Positions 9,700-53,319 of a stretch of 64,000 bases of DNA are shown in pieces. Positions within the stretch are counted from its first letter, which is position 1. Each line of letters starts with the position of its first letter. The notes beneath the pieces were generated by a model. The model was not told the DNA's origin, searched no databases, and saw only the letters and a list, made by a program, of their open reading frames with translations. Source of the DNA: Rhodospirillales bacterium (GTDB taxonomy: Bacteria; Pseudomonadota; Alphaproteobacteria; Bin95); the NCBI GenBank assembly GCA_038143065.1, contig JAYQLI010000012.1, forward strand, positions 38,076 through 102,075, read 5' to 3'. The position numbers and the translations under genes were made by a program.

Positions 9700-10494
9700 T
9701 TATCTCCCTTTTGTAAGTTCCTTGTGGTCTTTGTGAATGCGGAGCGGCACTTGATAAGTCGTATGACGTGCCAAAGTTGTTTTGTAAGTGTACCGCTCGG
9801 CAGGATAGATGGCTTCGGCAACTTCCAGAAGCCTTTCATCATTCGAATAGGTCTGGCGCGTCACCACGGTGACTGCCGACGGGTCGTTAAGCGAGAGTGC
9901 TTGTTGTTCATGAGCCATTGCCAAACGGGCCGTCACGATTTCAGATGCTGAGGCGATCTCATGCCCTGCATTTTGTAATGCGGAATACAAGGAAAACTGA
10001 GACTGATTGCCCGCAACCAGCGACTGCGTATCATGTTCTGAAAACTGTGCCAAAATTGCTTTGGGCACGAAACTTGAATGCAATGCTGCGGCCAATCCAT
10101 CAACCAATCGAACACGCTCAAGACGCATCGCCGGTTCAAAACACCCAAGTGAGGCGCTGATTTGCCTGTCGGCGGTAGAAAATGACAAACGCGTTGCTCG
10201 GCGACATATCCTTGACCAGAAACGGTTTCTGTAAAACTCAGAAGACGCCCTAGGTCTCTCCGCAGATTTACTCCCGCAACAAATGTACCAGAACCCTGTT
10301 TACGGACGGCCAGCCCCTCTGCGACCAAAAGTTCTACGGCTTTGACAACTGTTCCACGGCTGACTCCGTAGTTCCGGCTGAGTTCTGGTTCAGATGAGCA
10401 TGCGGCTGCCCAATGGAAATGCACCACTGGTTATTTGCTGACGCAGAATGTCTGCGAGGAACTGATATCTAGGCTGTCGTTTCAAGGCTTGCAT
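9700..10494 (-). pseudogene. GntR/HutC-family transcriptional regulator (UTRA effector domain), frameshifted
   Basis: MQALKRQPRYQFLADILRQQITSGAFPLGSRM is followed by a stop. The protein continues as SEPELSRNYGVSRGTVVKAVELLVAEGLAVRKQGSGTFV (9933..10427) and an UTRA-like C-terminal part (9700..10188) in other frames. Confidence 0.75.
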
Positions 10495-11615: not shown

Positions 11616-13019
11616 CTACTTCAAAATGATTTCCGGCCCCATGATGAGGTTGGGTAGAAAGGTCGAAATCCAAGGCACGTAGGTTACCAAGATCAAGAAA
11701 ACAAAAAGAACGCCTAGGAATGGAAGCGCAGCCTTGACGACCGACATCATTGGCATGCCAGCAACGCCTGAAGTGACAAATAAATTTAACCCAACCGGTG
11801 GCGTGATCATACCAATTTCCATGTTAACAACCATAATGATACCGAGGTGAATCGGATCAATGCCCAGTTCTATCGCAATTGGAAAGACCAGTGGAGCGAC
11901 AATCACAAGTAATCCTGAAGGCTCCATGAACTGCCCACCAATCAGCAGGATGATGTTCACGACGATAAGGAACATAACCGGTCCGAAGCCCGCCGATAAC
12001 ATTGCATTAGCCACATGTTGTGGAACTTGTTCATCCGTCAGAACATGCTTAAGAATGAGCGCGTTTGCGATTACAAATAAGAGCGTAACGGTGAGTTTGC
12101 CTGTTTCCAGCAGCGTGTGCTTTGTATCGGATGGAAGAAAGCTGTCACCAGCGCCCAAGGCTGACGCCATAAAGAAGTGGTCCCTCTTGGACCCTCATAG
12201 GCAGCGGAAAGATCGCGCGGGCCTTTTTCGGCAAGTGGACCCATATCTTTGTAGATAAAGTTGGCAATGAAGAATGCATAGACCGCAGCAACCGCGGCCG
12301 CTGATTGGGGTGAATACCCCTCCATAGATACCGCCAAGGATAATCACGATTAAGAAAAGGCCCCAACCGGCTTCGCGTCCTGAGGCAAAAACCTCTCTCC
12401 ATCCTCGCCATTCGCCTTTGGGTAAGTTTTTCACCTTTGCAATGACATAAATCGCGGTCATAAGCATAAAGCCAGCCAAAAGCCCCGGGATGACGCCAGC
12501 GAGAAACATCCGTCCAACCGAAACTTCCACCGAAGCCGCATAGACAACCATCACGATAGAGGGTGGAATAAGAATTCCCAGCGTACCTGCATTGCAGATC
12601 ACACCTGCAGCAAAATCCTTTGAATAGCCAACTTGGATCATTCCTCCAATAACGATCGTTCCAATTGCCACGACAGTTGCTGGTGAAGAACCTGACAGGG
12701 CTGCAAACAGCATGCAGGCAAAAACGCCGGCAATGGCCAGCCCACCGGGCAAGTGTCCGACACAGGCAATTGAAAACCGGATGATCCGCTGGGCAACGCC
12801 GCCAGTTGTCATGAACGAAGAGGCTAGAATAAAAAACGGGATCGCAAGAAGCGTATAGTGGCCCTCGAAGGCGCTGAACAGGGTTTGGGCCACTGATGCA
12901 AGTGAACTGTCAGAAAAGGCTAGCAGAAACAGCAGGGAGGACATGCCAAGTGCGACCGCGATCGGTACACCGATAACCAGCATGCCGATGACTAAGGTAA
13001 AAAGTAGAACAACTTCCAT
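11616..13019 (-). pseudogene. dctM: TRAP transporter large permease DctM, frameshifted
   Basis: N-terminal piece 12195..13019 and C-terminal piece 11616..12170, bridged by 12071..12337, lie in different frames. The sequence is typical DctM (GSSPATVVAIGTIVIGGM, MITPPVGLNLFV). Confidence 0.8.
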
Positions 13020-13686
13020 CAGGATTTCTTTCTCAACTGCTCACGAGCATCTTGGATTTCATCTTCAACCTCATGACTGGCCACCAACCGGTCAGCCGCG
13101 CCGACCCAGAGAGCCCATGCAGCTTGCAGAAACCGGAAAAGCATCAAAGCCATTGACAATGGCAGAACGAGATATGGCAAAAGGCGTGGGATTTTCTCGT
13201 ATTCTTCGCTTTCATTGAAGACAGTTTCCATCCATCCTAATATGGCGGGATGCGGGATGTCATTGACCTCGTACCATCCTTTGTCGCGGTACTTTTCTTC
13301 AAAACCGAGCGGAAACCAACGCCCCTCCGTGCCCGGCAGATTGGCGAAATTCGCCCAGTAGTCCCAAGCTCCTTTCAGCATTAGGAAAGCTGAAGGCAAC
13401 GCATACAGCCACAGCAACCAACCCCCAAGACGCGGCGTGATTTCGAAGTTAGAATATTGACGACGATATCAACACCAAGATGTGAACCCTTTTTGACGGC
13501 ATAAGAGGCGCCGAGGAGTACCAACCAACCGAAGAGAAAGACAGTTAGCTCAAGAGCCCAAAGAATGTTTTTGTTGAACCCATACCGCGCCACGACGTTG
13601 GCGAATGTAATCAATGTCATTACGCCAAGAATGGCTGAGATCAACGTCTCCTCAATACGATCGGTAAACGATTTTGAGTGATTCAT
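13019..13686 (-). pseudogene. dctQ: TRAP transporter small permease DctQ (extended type), frameshifted
   Basis: Pieces 13381..13686 (IEETLISAILGVMTLITFANVVARYGF) and 13019..13417 lie in different frames, between dctP and dctM. Confidence 0.65.
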
Positions 13687-13752
13687 AATTTAACTTTCCA
13701 AGCATGTTAGAAGGCGTCTAAAACGCCTCCGAACAGGTTGAATCAAGTGACT

Positions 13753-25117: not shown

Positions 25118-26953
25118 ATGAAAATTACATTAAGGATAATCATTCTCTTAGGGGTTTTTGCTCATCTGACACCAGCTCTACTTCTGTCTTACACTGATTA
25201 CTCCAGCGAAGACGGATCTGGAAAACAATTTCAACTTCATGATTGATCAACCGCAGAGAATGTGACAGGCGCTTACGACTTGGTTGAAGTCGGATTTCGG
25301 ATTTTGTCACTGAGTTTGGAAAATCAAATGCTTAGTGCCTTTGAGCCTTTTAAGGCTGCATATTTTGAGGTTAATGGTGAGGTTTCTAAAATTGATTTAG
25401 CTGAACTAAAAGAAGAGTTGGGCGATGAAGTTGATTTTGTATATAATAGACGAACATGGTGTCATCATACACAACATTTGAAAAGGATTTAAATCTAGAT
25501 TTCTCAAAAGTTGCACCAGGCTTCAACAAAACTCCAAGAAATAAGAATGATAAAGTCAGTATCAGGTAGTAAGATCATGTCTCCAAATGAGACCATTACT
25601 GGTAATGTTCGCAAATGCCCTGCTGGGCACTCCTGACAAAAAGTATATTCTAGAAAATTGGTATAAAATCATCTCCCAATTTGAGCACCAGATTATTTAA
25701 AGATCTTGATTTATTGAAAATTTCTAGTGACTTTGAACAATTTAATCCAGATCTCAAGTCAGTTATCATTTTTAATGGAAATGGAAAAGTAGCGAATAAA
25801 CCTGATTTTGCTGTTATGAGATCAAAGAAAGTAACATTGTAGATGTTTATGAAAGTGGCGAGCGGCTTGATATTGATAGGGTATTAAAGCTTCTGAAAAA
25901 TGGATTTATGTTAAAGCTGATATTGACGAAGCAGATGGTAGTGCTTCTCAAGGAGATAAAGCAATTGAGTCACTTTTGCACGTCTACACTAAAAAATCAG
26001 CTTAGCGAGCTAGCTTTAAACCAGGCCTTGATCACTGTCTTTCTTCTTCATCGTTATTTGGTGGAATAATGTCGCTGATTTTGGCCAATAGAATTTCAAG
26101 ACCAATTACTGCCATTACAGAAGCTATCGGAGTGATTTCTAAGGGTGAATTGAATATTGAAATCAAAAACAAAGAAAGTCTCGGAAGGAACTATGGATCT
26201 GTCTTAGGATCTCCCACCAAATGAAAGATAGCATCAAAGACAGAATTAACGATATTCAAATCATTAATTCTTCATATGAGCGATTTGTTCCTAAGGAATT
26301 TCCAAAGCACTCTCTTGGAAAAAATCAATAATGGATATGCTCTTGGTGGCGATGGTAGCATCGACAAAGATGCTCCGTTTTATTTTCTGATATGGGACTT
26401 TACAGGCTATCTTCTGAAAACATGTCACCAAAAGAAAACTTGGTTTGAATAATTATTTGGACTCAATGACAATTCTGCCATCAACACAAAATAACGGCTT
26501 TATCGACAAATATATTTGACGCAGTGATGGCTCTTTCCCCTACTTCCGCAGAAGACTCTGTAAAAGCAGCATTGGAAATGAACAAAGAATTAAGAAATTT
26601 TAATTCGGTTAGGGACTGCAGGTGGTAGAGAAACATTTGATCAATATGGGGGTAGGTATTCATATTGGACAATTAGTTCTTGGTACTATTGGCAGAGAGA
26701 CGAGGATGGAAACTACAGTCATAAGCGACTGTTAACGCTTCTGCTAGATTTAAAGTCTAAACAAAGCTGGAACAAATGTTTTGATTTCAGGGATGTGCGA
26801 AATGAACTTTCACTGAAACACAGAAAGCTGCAGGTTAGTGGACAGGACACAAGTTAAAGGTAAATCAGAATTTTTGATGTTTATGAAGTATTGTTCAGAC
26901 GATACAGAATTTTAGAGGCACAATTTTCATCAATCAAAACGCTGAACAAGTAG
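25118..26953 (+). pseudogene. Membrane sensor with HAMP domain and class III adenylate cyclase domain, heavily degraded
   Basis: The start is MKITLRIIILLGVFAHL. A HAMP-like stretch follows (SLILANRISRPITAITEAIGVISKGELNIEIKNKE). Cyclase fragments FVPKEF, GFIDKYI, GIHIGQLVLGTIGRETRMETTVISD, VKGKSE and DVYEVL are scattered over all three frames. Confidence 0.65.
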
Positions 26954-27272
26954 TAACGAACTTTCGATGGATAAAAAGCGGCTGGTGCAGAATTTTCAAA
27001 AAATAAAAATCTGACTTATTTAGATCGTCCTGTAATTTCATACTGACCGTTACGCAAAAGATAGATGACATCGCATTGACACATCTTATCATCTTAGTAT
27101 CGCCTTCTGGAGCCGAAACTTCTAGGAATTAACTTGGAAGAAGGAGAAGACTTTAATTAAAATCAAATTTTGCAGCAAAAATTTTTTGCAGTAGGCCGTA
27201 GCGTTACATAAATGAAATACTCTGGTTTTTCTGTCGTCACCTCTTGACACATCTTCATCACACATTATCCAC

Positions 27273-27305
27273 ATTGGCACACATCAAGAGATAGGTCATG
27301 TGTTG
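27273..27305 (+). repeat. 33-nt direct repeat, copy B2
   Basis: See copy B1. The pair brackets the HAMP-cyclase pseudogene. Confidence 0.8.
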
Positions 27306-27383
27306 TGGAGCTGTCCTCTTCGTGTAGATCTATACGCAGGAATTGACGTAAGTGTCTGATAATGAACACGAAGCGAATTAGAA

Positions 27384-27434
27384 TACTGATATTGTTCTGT
27401 TTTCGTTAACGGATACAGGATCGTAGTTGATGTC
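27384..27434. repeat. Left arm of the 51-bp inverted repeat flanking integrase paralog 2
   Basis: The reverse complement of 27384-27434 matches 28605-28655 at 50 of 51 positions with one 1-nt indel (checked base by base). The arm contains the TTG/ATG start of the integrase ORF at its inner end. Confidence 0.9.
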
Positions 27435-28663
27435 TTTGTTGTTGAATGTGCCTTATACCTATCGCAAAGATGGTATTTATTACTTGCAGCGGTATGTCCC
27501 TGAGGATGTTCGCCAGCATTACAAAACCAATCGGATTTCCTTTTCGCTTAGAACAAAATTAGCACGGGACGCCATGGCTCTAGCTCGCAGTGCCAGTGCA
27601 AAGCTTGAAGCCTATTGGCATTCTCTCAGGCTTGCTTACGGCGAAGTGCCCGCTCAGCACTTAGTTGCTTTGCGAGATCAGGGTCAGCGGGGAGCAGGCA
27701 AGGTGGAGCAGTCTTTGGGTTTAAGCTTGGCTGAGGCTGGTGAGATGTACCTACGGCTCAAAGGTTCAAACAAGCCAAAAGACATTCCACAGCGCTACAG
27801 AGCGGGCCTTGAGTTACGTCGTAAAAGTGATCAGGAATAAACACCTGCACGCAATCTCCCGCAAGGATGCAGCAGCCGTGCGGGATGATCTTGTTGCCAA
27901 AGGCCTTGCTCCATCTTCAGTCACCCGTGTGCTTACGACAATCAAAGCCGTGATCCAATTTGCCATTCAAGAAGAAGGGTCAGAGCTCTCAAATCCATTT
28001 AAGGGCTTGTTCGTGGATAAAGCATAAGGCCAAAGAAACGAATGCCTGTTCCATTGAAAGATTTGCGCAGAGTTCAACAGCAATGCTGGCACGCAGATGA
28101 CGATTTGCGCTGGATCGTAGCAGCCATCAGCGACACGGGTTGTAGAATGGCTGAGATCGTGGGGCTGAGTAAAACTGACATCCAGATTAGATGGCGATAT
28201 TCCCATTTCGATCAGGCCCCGGCCGTAGCGAAGGCTTAAAACGGTTTCAAGTGAGCGGGATATACCGCTGGTTGGATCAGCTCTTTGGGGAATTACTCGT
28301 GCCTACCAATCAACGAATTCAGAAATGTTATTCCCACGCTACAACGATGGAGTTTCTACGAACTCCAATAGTGCAACTGCTTTATCAAAATGGCTCAAGC
28401 AGCAAACTAATCCCGATTGCACGATGCACAGCTTCAGGCATTTATTCCGAGATCGTTTGAGAGCGGTGGAGTGTCCTATCAGACTTACGGATGCACTTGG
28501 TGGTTGGAGTACTGATGGAATTGGGGCAGCTTATGGTCAGGGCTATGGCCTGCAGCAAACAAAAATGGTTGTCTGCTATCGTGTTAAAAACCTGATCAAC
28601 GAACGACATCAACTACGATCCTGTATCCCGTTAACGAAAACAGAACAATATCAGTCCTGTTAG
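27427..28663 (+). pseudogene. Tyrosine recombinase/integrase (paralog 2), frameshifted
   Basis: N-terminal YRKDGIYYLQRYVPEDVR motif. The C-terminus is HSFRHLFRDRLRAVECPIRLTDALGGWSTDGIGAAYGQGYG. Pieces 27427..27840, 27740..28027, 28042..28239 and 28325..28663 lie in different frames. Confidence 0.8.
28605..28655. repeat. Right arm of the 51-bp inverted repeat flanking integrase paralog 2
   Basis: See the left arm. This arm lies at the extreme 3' end of the integrase reading frame. Confidence 0.9.
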
Positions 28664-28883
28664 ATGAATATGGCGCCTGTTGGCGGAGCCACAGTCCTCT
28701 CCTGGGCACCAAAATTCTAGTATAATTTATAATAAAATAAGCAAAAACAGTGGTATAGATTTGAAGTGGACCACTTTTGGGACCGCTTGGAGGACCAGTT
28801 TGTCGAAACTGTTCGCTAAATTGTCAGTGTTAAACCACCAGTTTTACTTGCAACTAGGCAGCTAAGTCTCAAAGCTAACAGCT

Positions 28884-30179
28884 ATGAGTGATGATATGCC
28901 GCTTAAACTCCCACGCTATGTATTCCGCCGTGCCAATGGCAGCTTTCGATATAAACGCAACGTTCCCTTGCATCCTAAGAGCCCTGATTGGAAAGCAACG
29001 CTCTATCGCCAGCTTGGGGATAGCTACAAAGAAGCCATGCAAAACCTGCCGCTGATACATGCTCGAATCGAAGCTCTGCTAGAAGGTGAGAAAGAGAAGT
29101 CAGCACGAGATCGCAGTATTGAGATTATTGGGGTGCGCTGGGCGATGAAGTGGCGGATATGGTACTGGCTAATGCCGTACCTGAGTATTCTGAAATTGAG
29201 GATGCGCTTAATGAGTTGGGTAAGGCTCTGCATAAGCAAAAGCTTCCTTCAGAGATTGTAGAACAGGTTTATTCAGGCAAGTTAAAGCAAGAGGTCATAA
29301 CGCTTGAGTCGGTTCTAAAAGACTACGTTGCCTATAAGTCAGATACACCCAAAAGCAGAAAAGGAAATCAAACAGCGGGTTGAAAGGCTGCGTAAAGACA
29401 TGCAGCACATCTACGGTAAGCAAAAGCTTAAGTATGTCTCGCTTAGTGATATCAGCAGGCAAGATGCCAATGATCTAAGGGATCACCTACTAACCCGTGT
29501 GTCGGCCAATAGCGCTGTTAGAATGCTGGGGGTTGTGAGAACGGCTATTAACCACGCAATCGTGGAGCACAGTCTCAACATCCCGAATGTCTTTACCAAC
29601 CTTCGCATTAAAGGTGCAGGTGCAAGTAACTAGATAGGCTACCGCTGGTGATACTCAGATCGTTCATTTAGAACAGCTTATTCGAATGACACAACAGCCT
29701 GGGCGCTGTTTGTTTGTCTGAGAGATACGGGTTGCAGAGTATCAGAAATAGCAGGCCTGAGGGTCAAAGACTGTGACACTGACAAAGAATGTTTAATCAT
29801 ATCCCCCACCCCTTGGAGAACGCTAAAAACCAATAACTCGCAGCGCTCTGTGCCACTCTCGCCAGAGGCTATTAAAGCGCTCGAGGAAGTATCTCAGGGC
29901 AAAGATCCTGAGGCACCTCTCTTTCCCCGATATGCAAAGGAGCGTGGAGGGGATAACTGCTCAGCCATGCTGATGAAGCGCCTAAGAACCATAATCACAG
30001 ACAAGAAGCTTACGATGCATTCACTACGCCACCGTATGAAGGACAAGCTGAGGAATACAGGCTGCCCGGAGGCCATCTCCATGGCTATACTAGGGCATGG
30101 TTCTAACACGGTCGCTGCGAACTATGGCTCAGGCTATGCCCTAGACGTCATGAGAGAGCATATGGAAAAGGTGTGGTAG
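28884..30179 (+). pseudogene. Tyrosine recombinase/integrase (paralog 3), frameshifted
   Basis: N-terminal YVFRRANGSFRYKRNVP motif. The C-terminus is HSLRHRMKDKLRNTGCPEAISMAILGHGSNTVAANYGSGY. Pieces 28884..29261, 29150..29383, 29328..29633 and 29850..30179 lie in different frames. Confidence 0.8.
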
Positions 30180-50524: not shown

Positions 50525-51033
50525 CCATCGGAGGTTGCCAGTTTTTTCTTAGATGGTTGTTGATTGGGACGCCAAGGTGCACGGCTACTGTGATCATTGG
50601 CAGAAATCAGTTTTTGGGTCAGCGTCATATACAAAGCGTATTCTTCATCTGTCAGAGGATCTATCAGCCGCCTTTGTGCTTTCACCATTCCAGGTTTCAC
50701 TTTTTCGACAAGCTGGCGTCCCGCAAGGGTTATTTTGGCCAGCTTTGTGCGTTTGTCTGTCGGATTATCGGGCCGCTCCAGTAACTCGCGTTTGGCCAGA
50801 CGTCTGATAACATCCGCAGCGGTGTTTCTGTCCACGCCAATCATTGAGGCAATGGTAACCTGATCGCGAACATTGCCATCTACAAGTACCGTAAGCACAC
50901 CAAATTGGACAGGTGTTAGATCATGCTTGCCGCATTCCTCCAGAAAAAGGGCTACGTGGATTTGGTGCAACCGCCGAATAAGGTGTCCCGGTCGATCTGT
51001 AAGGTTTTGAAAAATCGAATCATCAACTGACAT
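50521..51033 (-). CDS. MarR-family transcriptional regulator, divergent from hyuA
   Basis: Contains LTPVQFGVLTVL...QVTIASMIGVDRNTAADVIRRLAKRELLERPDNPTDKRTKLAKITLAG. Intact, 170 aa. Confidence 0.85.
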   Translation of the reverse strand: MSVDDSIFQNLTDRPGHLIRRLHQIHVALFLEECGKHDLTPVQFGVLTVLVDGNVRDQVTIASMIGVDRNTAADVIRRLAKRELLERPDNPTDKRTKLAKITLAGRQLVEKVKPGMVKAQRRLIDPLTDEEYALYMTLTQKLISANDHSSRAPWRPNQQPSKKKLATSDG

Positions 51034-51181
51034 AGAGGCTCTGGTTTTAATTACTGCTTAATCGGTATTATATACCAAAGCACCGTGATTTAAACCAGCG
51101 CTTGAAAATGTAAGGTACAGCGGGCCGCACACAGGAAGAGCCACAAGGTGTGTGGATGACGGATAAAAAAATGTCTTTTAT

Positions 51182-51209
51182 TTGACACCGCCAATTTCCG
51201 TAGTACACT
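51182..51209 (+). promoter_or_regulatory. Candidate sigma70-type promoter for the hyuA array: TTGACA, 16 nt, TACACT
   Basis: Read directly. Nearby palindromes GGTAT-tat-ATACC (51066-51078) and CCACA-aggtg-TGTGG are candidate MarR sites. Confidence 0.3.
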
Positions 51210-51246
51210 ACCTAATATTGTGTGTTCGAACTTTGGAGAAAACCGT

Positions 51247-53319
51247 ATGGGTTGGACAGTTGGTGTGGATGTCGGCGGGACATTTACTGATTTTTATGCA
51301 GCGAACGATCAAACCGGAGTGTTTCACGTTCACAAAACGTCGTCCACGCCTTCGAACCCAGCTGAAGCAATTCTAAATGGTCTTGACGTAATGTGCACCA
51401 AGTTCGATATCCCAGCGGATGAAATCGAACGGGTGTCCCATGGAACAACAGTTGGCACCAATGCGCTGATCCAGCGCACTGGAAGCCGTGTGGCCTTGGT
51501 AACAACCAAAGGGTTTTGCGATCTGTTGGAAGTTGGTCGCCAAACGCGCCCTCATATGTATGACTTGCAACGGGATCACCCCGATCCGCTAGTGGATCGG
51601 GAATACCGCATTGAACTGAATGAACGTATCGGCGCAAAGGGTGAAATCGTTCGCGCTCCGAGTGCTGAGGATATCGATGCGGCTGTTGATGAAGTGATTT
51701 CTGTGGCTGCAGGCGCCTGCGCCATTGGGTTTGTTTTTTCGTTCAGAAATGACAGCCACGAACAAGCGTTTGCAAAGGCCTTGCGCAAACGTGCACCAGA
51801 GATTGCGGTTTCGGTGTCCTCCGAAGTACAGCCAGAATTTCGCGAATATGAACGACTATCCACAACAGTTCTCAACGCCTATTTGCAGCCTGTTATGTGG
51901 CACTATTTGGAAACCTTGGAAGCAGGGATCGCAGAACGTGCGCCCAATGCCAGCCTTGGGATTAACCAATCAAGTGGTGGATTGATGTCGGTTCAGCGGT
52001 CAAGGGAATTTCCAGTGCGGACTGCTCTGTCTGGTCCTGCTGCAGGTGCAGTGGGCGCGGCCCATGCGGCACGTCAAACAGGACGCCGCAATATCATTAC
52101 GCTCGATATGGGTGGCACCAGTGCCGATGTAGCGTTGATCCGTGACTACAGCGTTGATCTGGCGTTTGATCGTGATGTAGCTGGCTTTCCTATTCGGATG
52201 CCGTGCGTTGATGTGGAAACTGTTGGTGCGGGTGGTGGCTCGATTGCGTGGTTTGATCGTGATGGTCTGTTGAAGGTTGGTCCAAAATCCGCAGGGGCGT
52301 ATCCCGGACCCGCGTGTTACGGCAATGGCGGCGACGAACCGACAACAACGGATGCGAACCTATTGCTAGGTCGTTTGTCTTCACGCGGTTTGCTGGATGG
52401 TGAAATGGGGCTTGATCCAGAGTTATCCCGTGCAGTTTTTAAGCCGATTGCGGATCAGTTGGGTTTTACCCTCGAAAAAACCGCACAGGGGATGCTGGGT
52501 ATCGTAATTGCCAATATGGTGCGAACGATCCGCACCATTTCTGTTGAGCGTGGACATGATCCGCGTGACTTTGTGCTGATGCCATTTGGTGGCGCTGGGC
52601 CTCTGCACGCCCGTGATGTGGCTGTAAGCCTCGGCATGAAAGAAATGGTTGTGCCCGCCGCACCTGGTATCGTTTGTGCTCAGGGTCTGTTAGTGTCTGA
52701 TTTGAAAGAAGATTTTGTTGTCAGCCGCCGTATTGCATTGGATGACACTGGGATCGGTGTTTTGGCGCAAACATTAGCAGACTTGCACACCAAAGCCGTG
52801 GATTGGTTTGCCAAGGAGAAAGCCCCTGAAACTGGTCGTAGTGTTCAATTGATTGTGGATGCGCGGTATGTGGGTCAAAACTTTGAACTTGCAGTGCCCG
52901 TGGCCGCAGGTGCGCAGTTATCTGTAAACGATGTACCAAATGCCCAAACGGTGACCAAAGCATTCTGTGATGCGCATGATCAAGCTTATGGCTACGCCAG
53001 CGAAACTGATCCCGTTGAAATAGTGAATGTTCGCTTGTCGGCACGTGCAAAGTTACACACATTCGAGGACAAACCAGCCGTAGATAGTGAAATAGATGAA
53101 CCACAGGTGCGCGACACTCGTTTAGTTTATTATGATAGCGATGCTCCTGTTGAATCGCGTATTTACGACAGTGCGGAAATGCGCCCGGGCCAACGGGTCA
53201 CCGGCCCAGCGGTTCTGGAGCAAATGGACACGACCACACCAGTTTACCCTGGTGATGTTGCTGAAATGACGCCCGATGGGCATTTGATTATCACCATAAA
53301 GCCGGAGGACCTTGCATGA
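51247..53319 (+). CDS. hyuA: Hydantoinase/oxoprolinase A subunit (HyuA family, ATP-dependent)
   Basis: MGWTVGVDVGGTFTDF is the typical N-terminus. Also present are LDMGGTSADV and VETVGAGGGSIAW. The ORF is uninterrupted to 53319. Confidence 0.85.
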   Translation: MGWTVGVDVGGTFTDFYAANDQTGVFHVHKTSSTPSNPAEAILNGLDVMCTKFDIPADEIERVSHGTTVGTNALIQRTGSRVALVTTKGFCDLLEVGRQTRPHMYDLQRDHPDPLVDREYRIELNERIGAKGEIVRAPSAEDIDAAVDEVISVAAGACAIGFVFSFRNDSHEQAFAKALRKRAPEIAVSVSSEVQPEFREYERLSTTVLNAYLQPVMWHYLETLEAGIAERAPNASLGINQSSGGLMSVQRSREFPVRTALSGPAAGAVGAAHAARQTGRRNIITLDMGGTSADVALIRDYSVDLAFDRDVAGFPIRMPCVDVETVGAGGGSIAWFDRDGLLKVGPKSAGAYPGPACYGNGGDEPTTTDANLLLGRLSSRGLLDGEMGLDPELSRAVFKPIADQLGFTLEKTAQGMLGIVIANMVRTIRTISVERGHDPRDFVLMPFGGAGPLHARDVAVSLGMKEMVVPAAPGIVCAQGLLVSDLKEDFVVSRRIALDDTGIGVLAQTLADLHTKAVDWFAKEKAPETGRSVQLIVDARYVGQNFELAVPVAAGAQLSVNDVPNAQTVTKAFCDAHDQAYGYASETDPVEIVNVRLSARAKLHTFEDKPAVDSEIDEPQVRDTRLVYYDSDAPVESRIYDSAEMRPGQRVTGPAVLEQMDTTTPVYPGDVAEMTPDGHLIITIKPEDLA

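Follow-up and report, generated by a model that had tools for sequence, protein, structure and literature searches.

Why should a single, frame-broken tyrosine integrase gene lie between two near-perfect copies of one sequence in opposite orientations? This question is raised by a 64,000-nucleotide stretch of contig JAYQLI010000012.1 from the Rhodospirillales bacterium assembly GCA_038143065.1 (positions 38,076 to 102,075 of the forward strand), referred to here as the window. An earlier, sequence-only reading of this DNA had offered three answers: an invertible segment carrying its own recombinase, a minimal insertion sequence (IS)-like mobile unit, and long-range pairing between the two ends of the integrase mRNA. 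In the analysis reported here, which rests on sequence comparison with related loci in genomes and metagenomes, a fourth answer is judged more likely than not: the repeat would belong to the regular layout of a family of DUF6538-type, lambda-like heterobivalent integrases that occupy tRNA ends in marine Alphaproteobacteria. In what follows, G000 denotes the window's own genome and C2, C5, C12 and so on its contigs; the window starts at C12:38076.

An inverted repeat search was performed over positions 26000-30000 of the window. It returned two sub-repeats, 27385-27412/28628-28655 (28 nt, 100% identity) and 27411-27437/28602-28628 (27 nt, 96%), which merge into one inverted repeat of 53/54 nt with one mismatch and one 1-nt indel (GG vs GGG). 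That sole indel is in a G run. The chance expectation of a perfect 28-mer inverted pair, computed for 4 kb, is approximately 1e-10. The near-perfect repeat around one tyrosine recombinase gene that had been perceived by inspection was therefore recovered by the search, although its arms span 27385-27437 and 28602-28655 rather than 27384-27434 and 28605-28655, base 27384 being unpaired. It is apparent from the window sequence and its open reading frames (ORFs) that both candidate integrase starts, TTG at 27427 and ATG at 27430, fall within the left arm, as had been claimed for the start codon, and that the last codons overlap the right arm, the stop codon being at 28661-28663. The integrase gene is the only content between the arms.

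A chance duplication-inversion, or an assembly artefact, unique to this locus might be suspected from the nature of the host assembly, which is fragmented (52 contigs, one of 2.86 Mb) and rich in pseudogenes, and from the position of the single repeat indel. This explanation can be practically dismissed, as the same architecture is present in dozens of independent genomes and metagenomes, contigs of 0.4-2.3 Mb included.

One such instance is found in the same genome. Contig C5 carries a second integrase copy, 90% identical to that of the window, whose inverted repeat is 93 nt long and takes in, on both sides, a 16-nt spacer followed by the final 19 nt of a tRNA-Phe. The left arm of the window is homologous to the arm of the C5 copy that extends outward through this spacer to the tRNA-Phe 3′ end. 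The counterpart of the right arm, in the C5 copy as in intact homologues, continues outward into an inverted attachment core and then an inverted P arm (core, P arm and P′ arm being named as in lambda). In C5 there is also a second inverted pair of about 950 nt, 25603-26539 vs 50649-51593, situated around a 24-kb segment, Z; the central inverted core is shared between the two pairs. The central GTTAAC to which attention had been drawn is present in both window arms, but the second copy has GTTAAT and GTTATT instead; it is therefore not a conserved feature, and the palindrome was rejected as a functional centre.

Intact homologues with a flanking inverted repeat, for which a search had been recommended, were found at 38-65% identity in several alphaproteobacterial families. 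Integrases of the clade at about 40% protein identity, comprising paralogues in G000 and orthologues in sister species, have the same repeat with arms of 36-161 nt. The intact genes, of 386-403 aa, adjoin tRNA-Sec, Gly-ccc, Thr-tgt, Phe and Leu, and the arms of intact homologues at tRNA genes measure 55-99 nt and are mostly 100% identical. In intact members the left arm begins in the T loop or T stem, takes in the last 13-21 nt of the tRNA (the core) and ends at the start codon; the right arm, in members without an intervening cargo gene (W, below), lies 5-40 nt past the stop codon. At E<=1e-30 the family numbers more than 4,600 protein clusters, most of them of marine metagenome origin. The inverted repeat was detected in 50 of 80 metagenome loci, and its arms are 100% identical in 27 of those 50; at most of the repeat-negative loci the contig end leaves no room for it. 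None of eight distant tRNA-adjacent integrases had the repeat, so the trait follows the clade and not tRNA integration in general. A scan of the collected genome contigs for related loci yielded only 6. Since only four loci are on viral contigs, this is not a typical phage module.

The whole layout was read from contigs of 0.4-2.3 Mb. The order is tRNA, core (c), leader (l), integrase gene (INT), an optional cargo segment (W, 0-1.8 kb), l′, c′, Y, Z, Y′ and a terminal c in direct orientation, after which host or further island DNA follows; Y is 230-480 nt long in the long-contig members. Two inverted-repeat pairs, (c-l / l′-c′) and (c′-Y / Y′-c), thus meet at one central site. As Y′-c-l is the attachment site of the element (attP), the right arm together with Y makes up a complete attP, inverted. 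The full layout, with a direct core in the right-hand attachment site (attR), is seen in loci L065 and L066 (cores at 9896 and 14154/14159) and in L067, and C5 is arranged likewise. The integrase unit is the tRNA-proximal end of an integrative element of 4-27 kb; all members are located at tRNA 3′ ends or tRNA-derived fragments, the insertion point of the family being the T-loop-to-CCA end of tRNA genes. From these alignments it is concluded with considerable confidence that the arms represent the inner P′ arm (the leader) present twice, once in the left-hand attachment site (attL) before the integrase and once, inverted, within an internal attP after the integrase or the cargo gene. No description of an internal inverted attP was found in literature searches, nor was any mention of DUF6538 found in the literature searched.

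The same anatomy bears on the proposal that the integrase and its terminal inverted repeats form a self-moving, IS-like unit. The genome does contain two copies, each with the repeat, and many metagenome contigs hold nothing beyond the integrase and its two arms. Such short contigs are expected, however, from repeat-induced assembly breaks, and no target-site duplications were found. The outer ends of intact arms are the tRNA 3′ end, the P arm into which the right arm runs on is found again, kilobases away, as attR, and both genome copies are in tRNA-type attachment contexts. An IS-like unit is accordingly regarded as highly improbable.

Assembly breaks are a general property of these loci. 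Contig ends very often fall at the arms or k-1 nt into Y′, which is attributed to disruption of the assembly graph by the inverted repeat, whether or not the segment flips. The layout explains both the isolated integrase contigs of 1.3-2.5 kb and the breaks just past the integrase. Even in genomes of 7-20 contigs, integrases of the family are mostly situated within about 200 nt of a contig end (for example L036-L038, L051, L054, L055 and many of L074-L153). In an empty-site comparison for tRNA-Sec within the genus, the contigs stop at the tRNA or belong to non-syntenic DNA; one tRNA-Sec contig of a same-genus genome (L062, G007:C162) has a high G+C content unlike that of the genus and is probably a contaminant.

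Read toward the core, the P arm consists of two tandem repeats of about 10 nt, TTGAC[AG], 16 nt, TAnnnT and ATTGATATTG, i.e. a sigma70-like promoter that points across the core and the leader. A looser pattern (TTGA[CT]N, 15-18 nt, TAnnnT) was matched in 24 of 33 loci, and the -35 element is at 79-84 nt from the core boundary in most of the pattern-bearing loci. A consensus promoter scan recovered these sites in L065, on the strands where they were expected. Between elements the tandem repeats vary, whereas within each element those of the P arm match two at the inner end of the leader, the first of which covers the Shine-Dalgarno region and the second the start codon (GGGTAGACAAAACGGTAGACAAAT with GGGTAGACAATATGGTAGACAAAT and CTGACGTACAAACTGACGCACAGA with GGTGTCGTACAGAATGACGTACAAT are examples). 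Shared 7-mers between P-arm and start-codon repeats average 2.17 within a locus and 0.30 across loci. Because the repeats co-vary and the integrase has a lambda-Int-like N-terminal domain, they are read as predicted arm-type sites for the integrase protein (Int), and the inverted repeat would end exactly at the start codon because the P′ arm ends there.

The protein is consistent with such sites. In two alignments the catalytic set of the intact homologues (R235, K267, H331, R334, W357, Y366) is invariant, and profile matches of the integrase in the PDB are to Tn1549 Int and XerD. An AlphaFold2 (AF2) model, with a predicted local distance difference test score (pLDDT) of 86, has an N-terminal three-stranded sheet (strands 14-17, 20-26 and 39-43) and a helix (49-74). 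A disordered linker joins these to a helical domain for core binding, after which comes the catalytic domain. The model can be aligned along its whole length with full-length lambda Int chains over 376-389 columns, a resemblance at the level of the fold only. On the basis of the model, a role of DUF6538 in binding arm sites appears likely.

The space between the integrase gene (int) and the right arm is informative in its own right. In 14 of the 34 loci with such a gap, an ORF on the opposite strand, W, starts -26 to +14 nt from the inner edge of the arm, and its position at the right arm is that of int at the left arm. W products are unrelated (GFA, DUF2938, alginate-lyase-like, GIY-YIG, HNH, arylsulfotransferase-like and unknowns), and W is present in one and absent from the other of two loci, L146 and L148, whose integrases are 95% identical. 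In view of this start position and turnover, the inverted promoter-core-leader seems to act as a slot from which a single cargo gene, convergent with int, can be expressed.

These observations also bear on the proposal of control by RNA alone, according to which the 3′ arm pairs with the 5′ leader in the mRNA, so as to hide the ribosome-binding site and start codon or to create an RNase III site in the manner of lambda sib, the DNA site being incidental. The Shine-Dalgarno region and start codon do lie in the left arm, and in members without W the close spacing of right arm and stop codon would suit such pairing. In many members, however, an opposite-strand cargo gene of up to 1.8 kb is interposed between int and the right arm, and the arm holds a tRNA-derived core and continues into a full P arm, neither of which RNA pairing would need. 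Pairing of the mRNA ends may occur, but control by RNA alone is deemed very unlikely; the anatomy points instead to convergent or antisense transcription from the inverted promoter.

How an internal inverted attP might operate can be outlined. In the circular form, one attP would place int under the P-arm promoter and the other would do so for W. Once the first attP has been used for integration, int would be uncoupled from the P-arm promoter, and the inverted attP would stay intact, driving W or, where W is absent, antisense transcription into int, directed at its 3′ end. The integrase gene would then be off by default after integration. On the DNA, Int bound at the two leader repeats (P′1P′2) would overlie the ribosome-binding site and start codon of its own gene as well. 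With two sites in inverted orientation, Int- or RecA-dependent flipping of INT(-W) behind the promoter, and of Z, would also become possible. That convergent-transcription control or flipping is a selected function is conceivable, though the chances are put at somewhat below even. The stronger proposal, that the integrase uses its two complete inverted attachment sites to serve also as an invertase, flipping both the integrase/cargo segment behind a fixed promoter and the replication/cargo segment, is a tentative one. If it were true, this integrase-invertase family would be a bacterial counterpart of FLP and the 2-micron plasmid, in which mobility, cargo expression and possibly copy number are coupled.

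It was of interest, therefore, whether inversion can be seen. Loci L065 and L066 encode the same integrase protein, have flanking DNA that is about 96.6% identical, and come from long polished contigs of two samples. They are collinear save for Z (12136-13692), which is reverse-complemented exactly between the Y arms; natural inversion of segments bounded by inverted attP is therefore possible, whether mediated by Int or by homologous recombination. Further down the island the two loci have a second inverted stretch with a cNMP-binding gene (19998-20503 in L065 vs 20789-20284 in L066), with different cargo between.

A self-flipping switch, in which Int or RecA inverts INT(-W) so that int alternates between a promoter-less slot at the tRNA and a slot behind the P-arm promoter, would make mobility vs cargo expression phase-variable. 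It would draw on identical, inverted, core-bearing sites on either side of the segment, on a conserved promoter outside the right arm only, on the inversion of Z, which shares the central site, on the tRNA on the far side of the segment in L081, and on the many contigs that break exactly at the arms. Contig breaks at inverted repeats arise without inversion, however, and the L081 arrangement can be a matter of assembler path choice. Where both sides of a locus could be classified, the tRNA is upstream and the promoter-bearing P arm downstream in 13 cases, and no locus is clearly the reverse. As no secure flipped isomer was encountered either (searches given below), a switch of this kind is considered doubtful. 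The suggestion of an invertible segment with its own recombinase therefore stands in part: the inverted site copies are conserved, there is an outside promoter and Z has inverted, but a flipped integrase segment was not securely seen. The comparison of assemblies for both orientations, which had been advised, gave the same division, Z occurring in both and the integrase segment in one secure orientation only.

The integrated layout also implies an excised circle with two inverted attP, which would divide it into an INT-W portion and one for replication or cargo. In a two-micron-like scheme, inversion by Int during replication of this circle would amplify copies (the Futcher model) or interconvert isomers. 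A D5_N primase is encoded in Z of L067 and L069-L073, and two loci have attP on both sides of int, namely L112 (11 kb, with no host DNA) and L084. Against this, L065 and L066 keep the layout with a Z of only 1.5 kb that has no replication gene; tandem arrays explain L112 and L084 equally well, and no circular junction was observed. Moreover, attP x attP recombination is usually inefficient for lambda-type integrases. The scheme is thus rated as quite unlikely.

Several observations weigh against the family layout described above, or against a function for it. Among the six places shown for one element, P0017 (24 contigs read), which represent one neighbourhood, no flipped integrase segment was present, and an all-against-all comparison of 35 close locus pairs revealed no inversion beyond that of L065/L066 and no flipped integrase segment. 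The arrangements of L081, where the tRNA is inverted and follows the right arm, of L112 and of L084 are ambiguous, being equally explained by assembler path choice, a tandem array or a circle. Clade members such as L085, L128 and L164 have enough flanking sequence and yet no repeat. The two arms or cores differ in L078 and L160, so homogenization is not universal, and 100% identity of arms could result from recent origin or gene conversion, without function. In the consensus scan, promoter-like sites of any single locus were not above those of shuffled sequences; the promoter argument consequently rests on positional conservation.

Two further observations concern the arms. The same INT-W unit (99.4% identical) is found in L160 and L158, from two metagenomes, in different tRNA contexts: at the 3′ part of a tRNA-Arg in one, where the attL-side arm is 89% like its partner, and at a tRNA-Ser-like fragment in the other. 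Arms can therefore be hybrid and are not always homogenized. In L148 (15-169 / 2041-2195) and L055 (1-187 / 1941-2127) the inverted copy reaches 25-43 codons into the integrase frame, which hints that the inverted attP may have arisen by inverted duplication of attP together with the 5′ end of int.

If the layout with its internal inverted attP is as described, its interest lies in the fact that integrative elements which target tRNA genes build the variable genomic islands found in abundant bacteria of the ocean. Through a conserved inverted attP such elements would gain a new layer of control, namely state-dependent uncoupling of the integrase from its promoter, a slot for cargo expression and inversion of segments. 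The compact attP/Int pairs with mapped, predicted arm sites are offered for testing.

The copy in the window is, as far as its alignment with C5 allows it to be read, a dead and truncated derivative. Its left attachment core and 16-nt spacer are missing, and of the direct core repeats at the element ends the right core alone survives. Comparison with C5 points to a deletion in which the inverted spacer and core were lost along with Y, Z and most of Y′. The integrase shares 89.7% identity with the C5 copy, the alignment having 18 gap openings, and relative to that copy it has undergone no fewer than three frame changes, a change of TGG to TAG and a small deletion; in tblastn with intact homologues the alignment is divided over two frames. 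The catalytic motifs are retained despite the broken frame. This broken frame agrees with the earlier opinion that the local copy is probably inactive. Many of the frame changes between window 27427-28663 and G000:C5:51573-52942 are differences in the length of A or G runs. Since several frame changes fall within homopolymers, and since the assembly is a fragmented one, assembly error could account for part of the damage. In the window, the feature serves only to mark an island array that has decayed.

The locus belongs to a tandem array of decayed elements; its parts are listed in Table 1. Within the preceding remnant, 27331-27382 is 94% identical to G000:C12:15977-16027, which runs into a T-arm/CCA-like end at C12:16090. 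The stretch designated X′ is 90-97% identical to the core-proximal P-arm ends at C2:8394-8446, C5:51537-51571 and C5:25625-25659; X′ was considered as a truncated promoter and rejected, the real P-arm promoter and repeats being further upstream in the C5 and C2 copies. The 18-nt core that follows it terminates a tRNA-like sequence at C12:16073-16090, and it is likewise the closing sequence of a 12.6-kb island (C12:28641) and of two island ends on C13. Positions 28694-28800 are 95% identical to C12:28640-28746. The integrase at 28712-30179 has no flanking inverted repeat, and no further one was found in 26000-30000. ARAGORN and Rfam made no tRNA or RNA call in the window or the flanking-repeat loci, and the tRNA-like ends here are fragments.

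Table 1. Features of the integrase locus and its immediate surroundings (window positions)
Feature	Position	Strand	Description
End remnant of the preceding element (P-arm-like)	27250..27383	+	Cut off ahead of the tRNA-like core
Left arm	27385..27437	+	Inner 51-53 nt of the leader (predicted P′ arm of attL/attP); includes the ribosome-binding region and the integrase start codon
Tyrosine integrase pseudogene	27427..28663	+	DUF6538 N-terminal and Phage_integrase catalytic domain (Pfam matches on ORF pieces)
Right arm	28602..28655	-	Inverted leader copy; putative remainder of the internal inverted attP of the element
X′	28656..28693	+	Final 38 nt of a directly oriented P arm; meets the right arm at a deletion joint (ATCAGT, then CC)
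Attachment core	28694..28711	+	GTCCTCTCCTGGGCACCA, 18 nt; tRNA-like 3′ end, attR-type copy; 18-mer matches elsewhere
Leader and next, unrelated decayed integrase (28884-30179)	28712..30179	+	ORFs; weak Phage_integrase and SAM-like matches

Other remnants were noted outside the window. The 12.6-kb island (G000:C12:16073-28658) has a direct copy of GTCCTCTCCTGG(G)CACCA at each end; the sequences on either side of it share 94-95% identity with the flanks of the window integrase unit, from which it follows that the target region is duplicated on the contig. Sequences resembling tRNA-Phe that ARAGORN did not call are situated at C5:10262(-), C7:13847(-), C9:19833(-) and C11:26882(+). Their 5′ halves are damaged, and each is followed by a similar TnTTnCAAAAyGATATCAATGA stretch. 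The sole tRNA-Phe of G000 called by ARAGORN is on C35.

In relation to known systems, the elements resemble those of lambda-type heterobivalent integrases in the three-domain protein, in the catalytic residues of intact members and in the position of the integrase beside a tRNA. As in lambda-type tRNA elements, the core of the attachment site is the tRNA 3′ end from the T loop, attL and attR form direct repeats, and tandem repeats flank the core on both sides, where lambda attP has the arm-type sites P1, P2 and P′1-3. They differ in that a second complete attP is kept inside the element, inverted, directly after int or one cargo gene, that the P′ repeats overlap the ribosome-binding site and start codon of int, and that a conserved P-arm promoter points across the core.

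Among inversion systems, Hin/hix, the Gin/gix G segment, the R64 shufflon with Rci/sfx and FimB/FimE are similar in that inverted sites flank a segment and an outside promoter could read the gene that faces it; in Hin the recombinase gene is likewise inside the invertible segment. The present sites are, in contrast, full attachment sites (arms of 55-190 nt, with a maximum of 950 nt for Y), the recombinase is an integrase, and inversion of INT was not observed. As with lambda sib retroregulation and the circularization-dependent expression of Tn916, integration changes the sequences upstream and downstream of int, and hence expression would depend on the state of the element. Unlike in those cases, the agent proposed here would be an intact inverted copy of promoter and leader that gives convergent transcription.

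The closest topological analogue is the yeast 2-micron plasmid, in which the FRT sites of the FLP recombinase lie inside 599-bp inverted repeats. In both, the recombinase gene is in one of two unique segments split by site-bearing inverted repeats, two isomers are expected and, in some members of the present family, a replication module is in the other segment. The differences are a bacterial host, an integrative habit, a lambda-type enzyme with predicted arm sites as opposed to one of the simple FLP type, and members that have no replicon.

In lifestyle the elements resemble tycheposons (Hackl et al., bioRxiv 10.1101/2020.12.28.424599). Those are likewise marine, occupy the 3′ ends of tRNAs and carry, on the tRNA side, a tyrosine integrase that faces inward; a small primase module is optional, the cargo varies, and decayed integrases and partial tRNAs occur in their tandem arrays. 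The text of that study makes no mention of inverted copies of the attachment site or of repeats flanking the integrase. Gene order, integration at the tRNA end, replication module, cargo and arrays are all shared, and array features are evident in the window. The hosts differ, being Alphaproteobacteria here, and the likeness is one of lifestyle and gene order.

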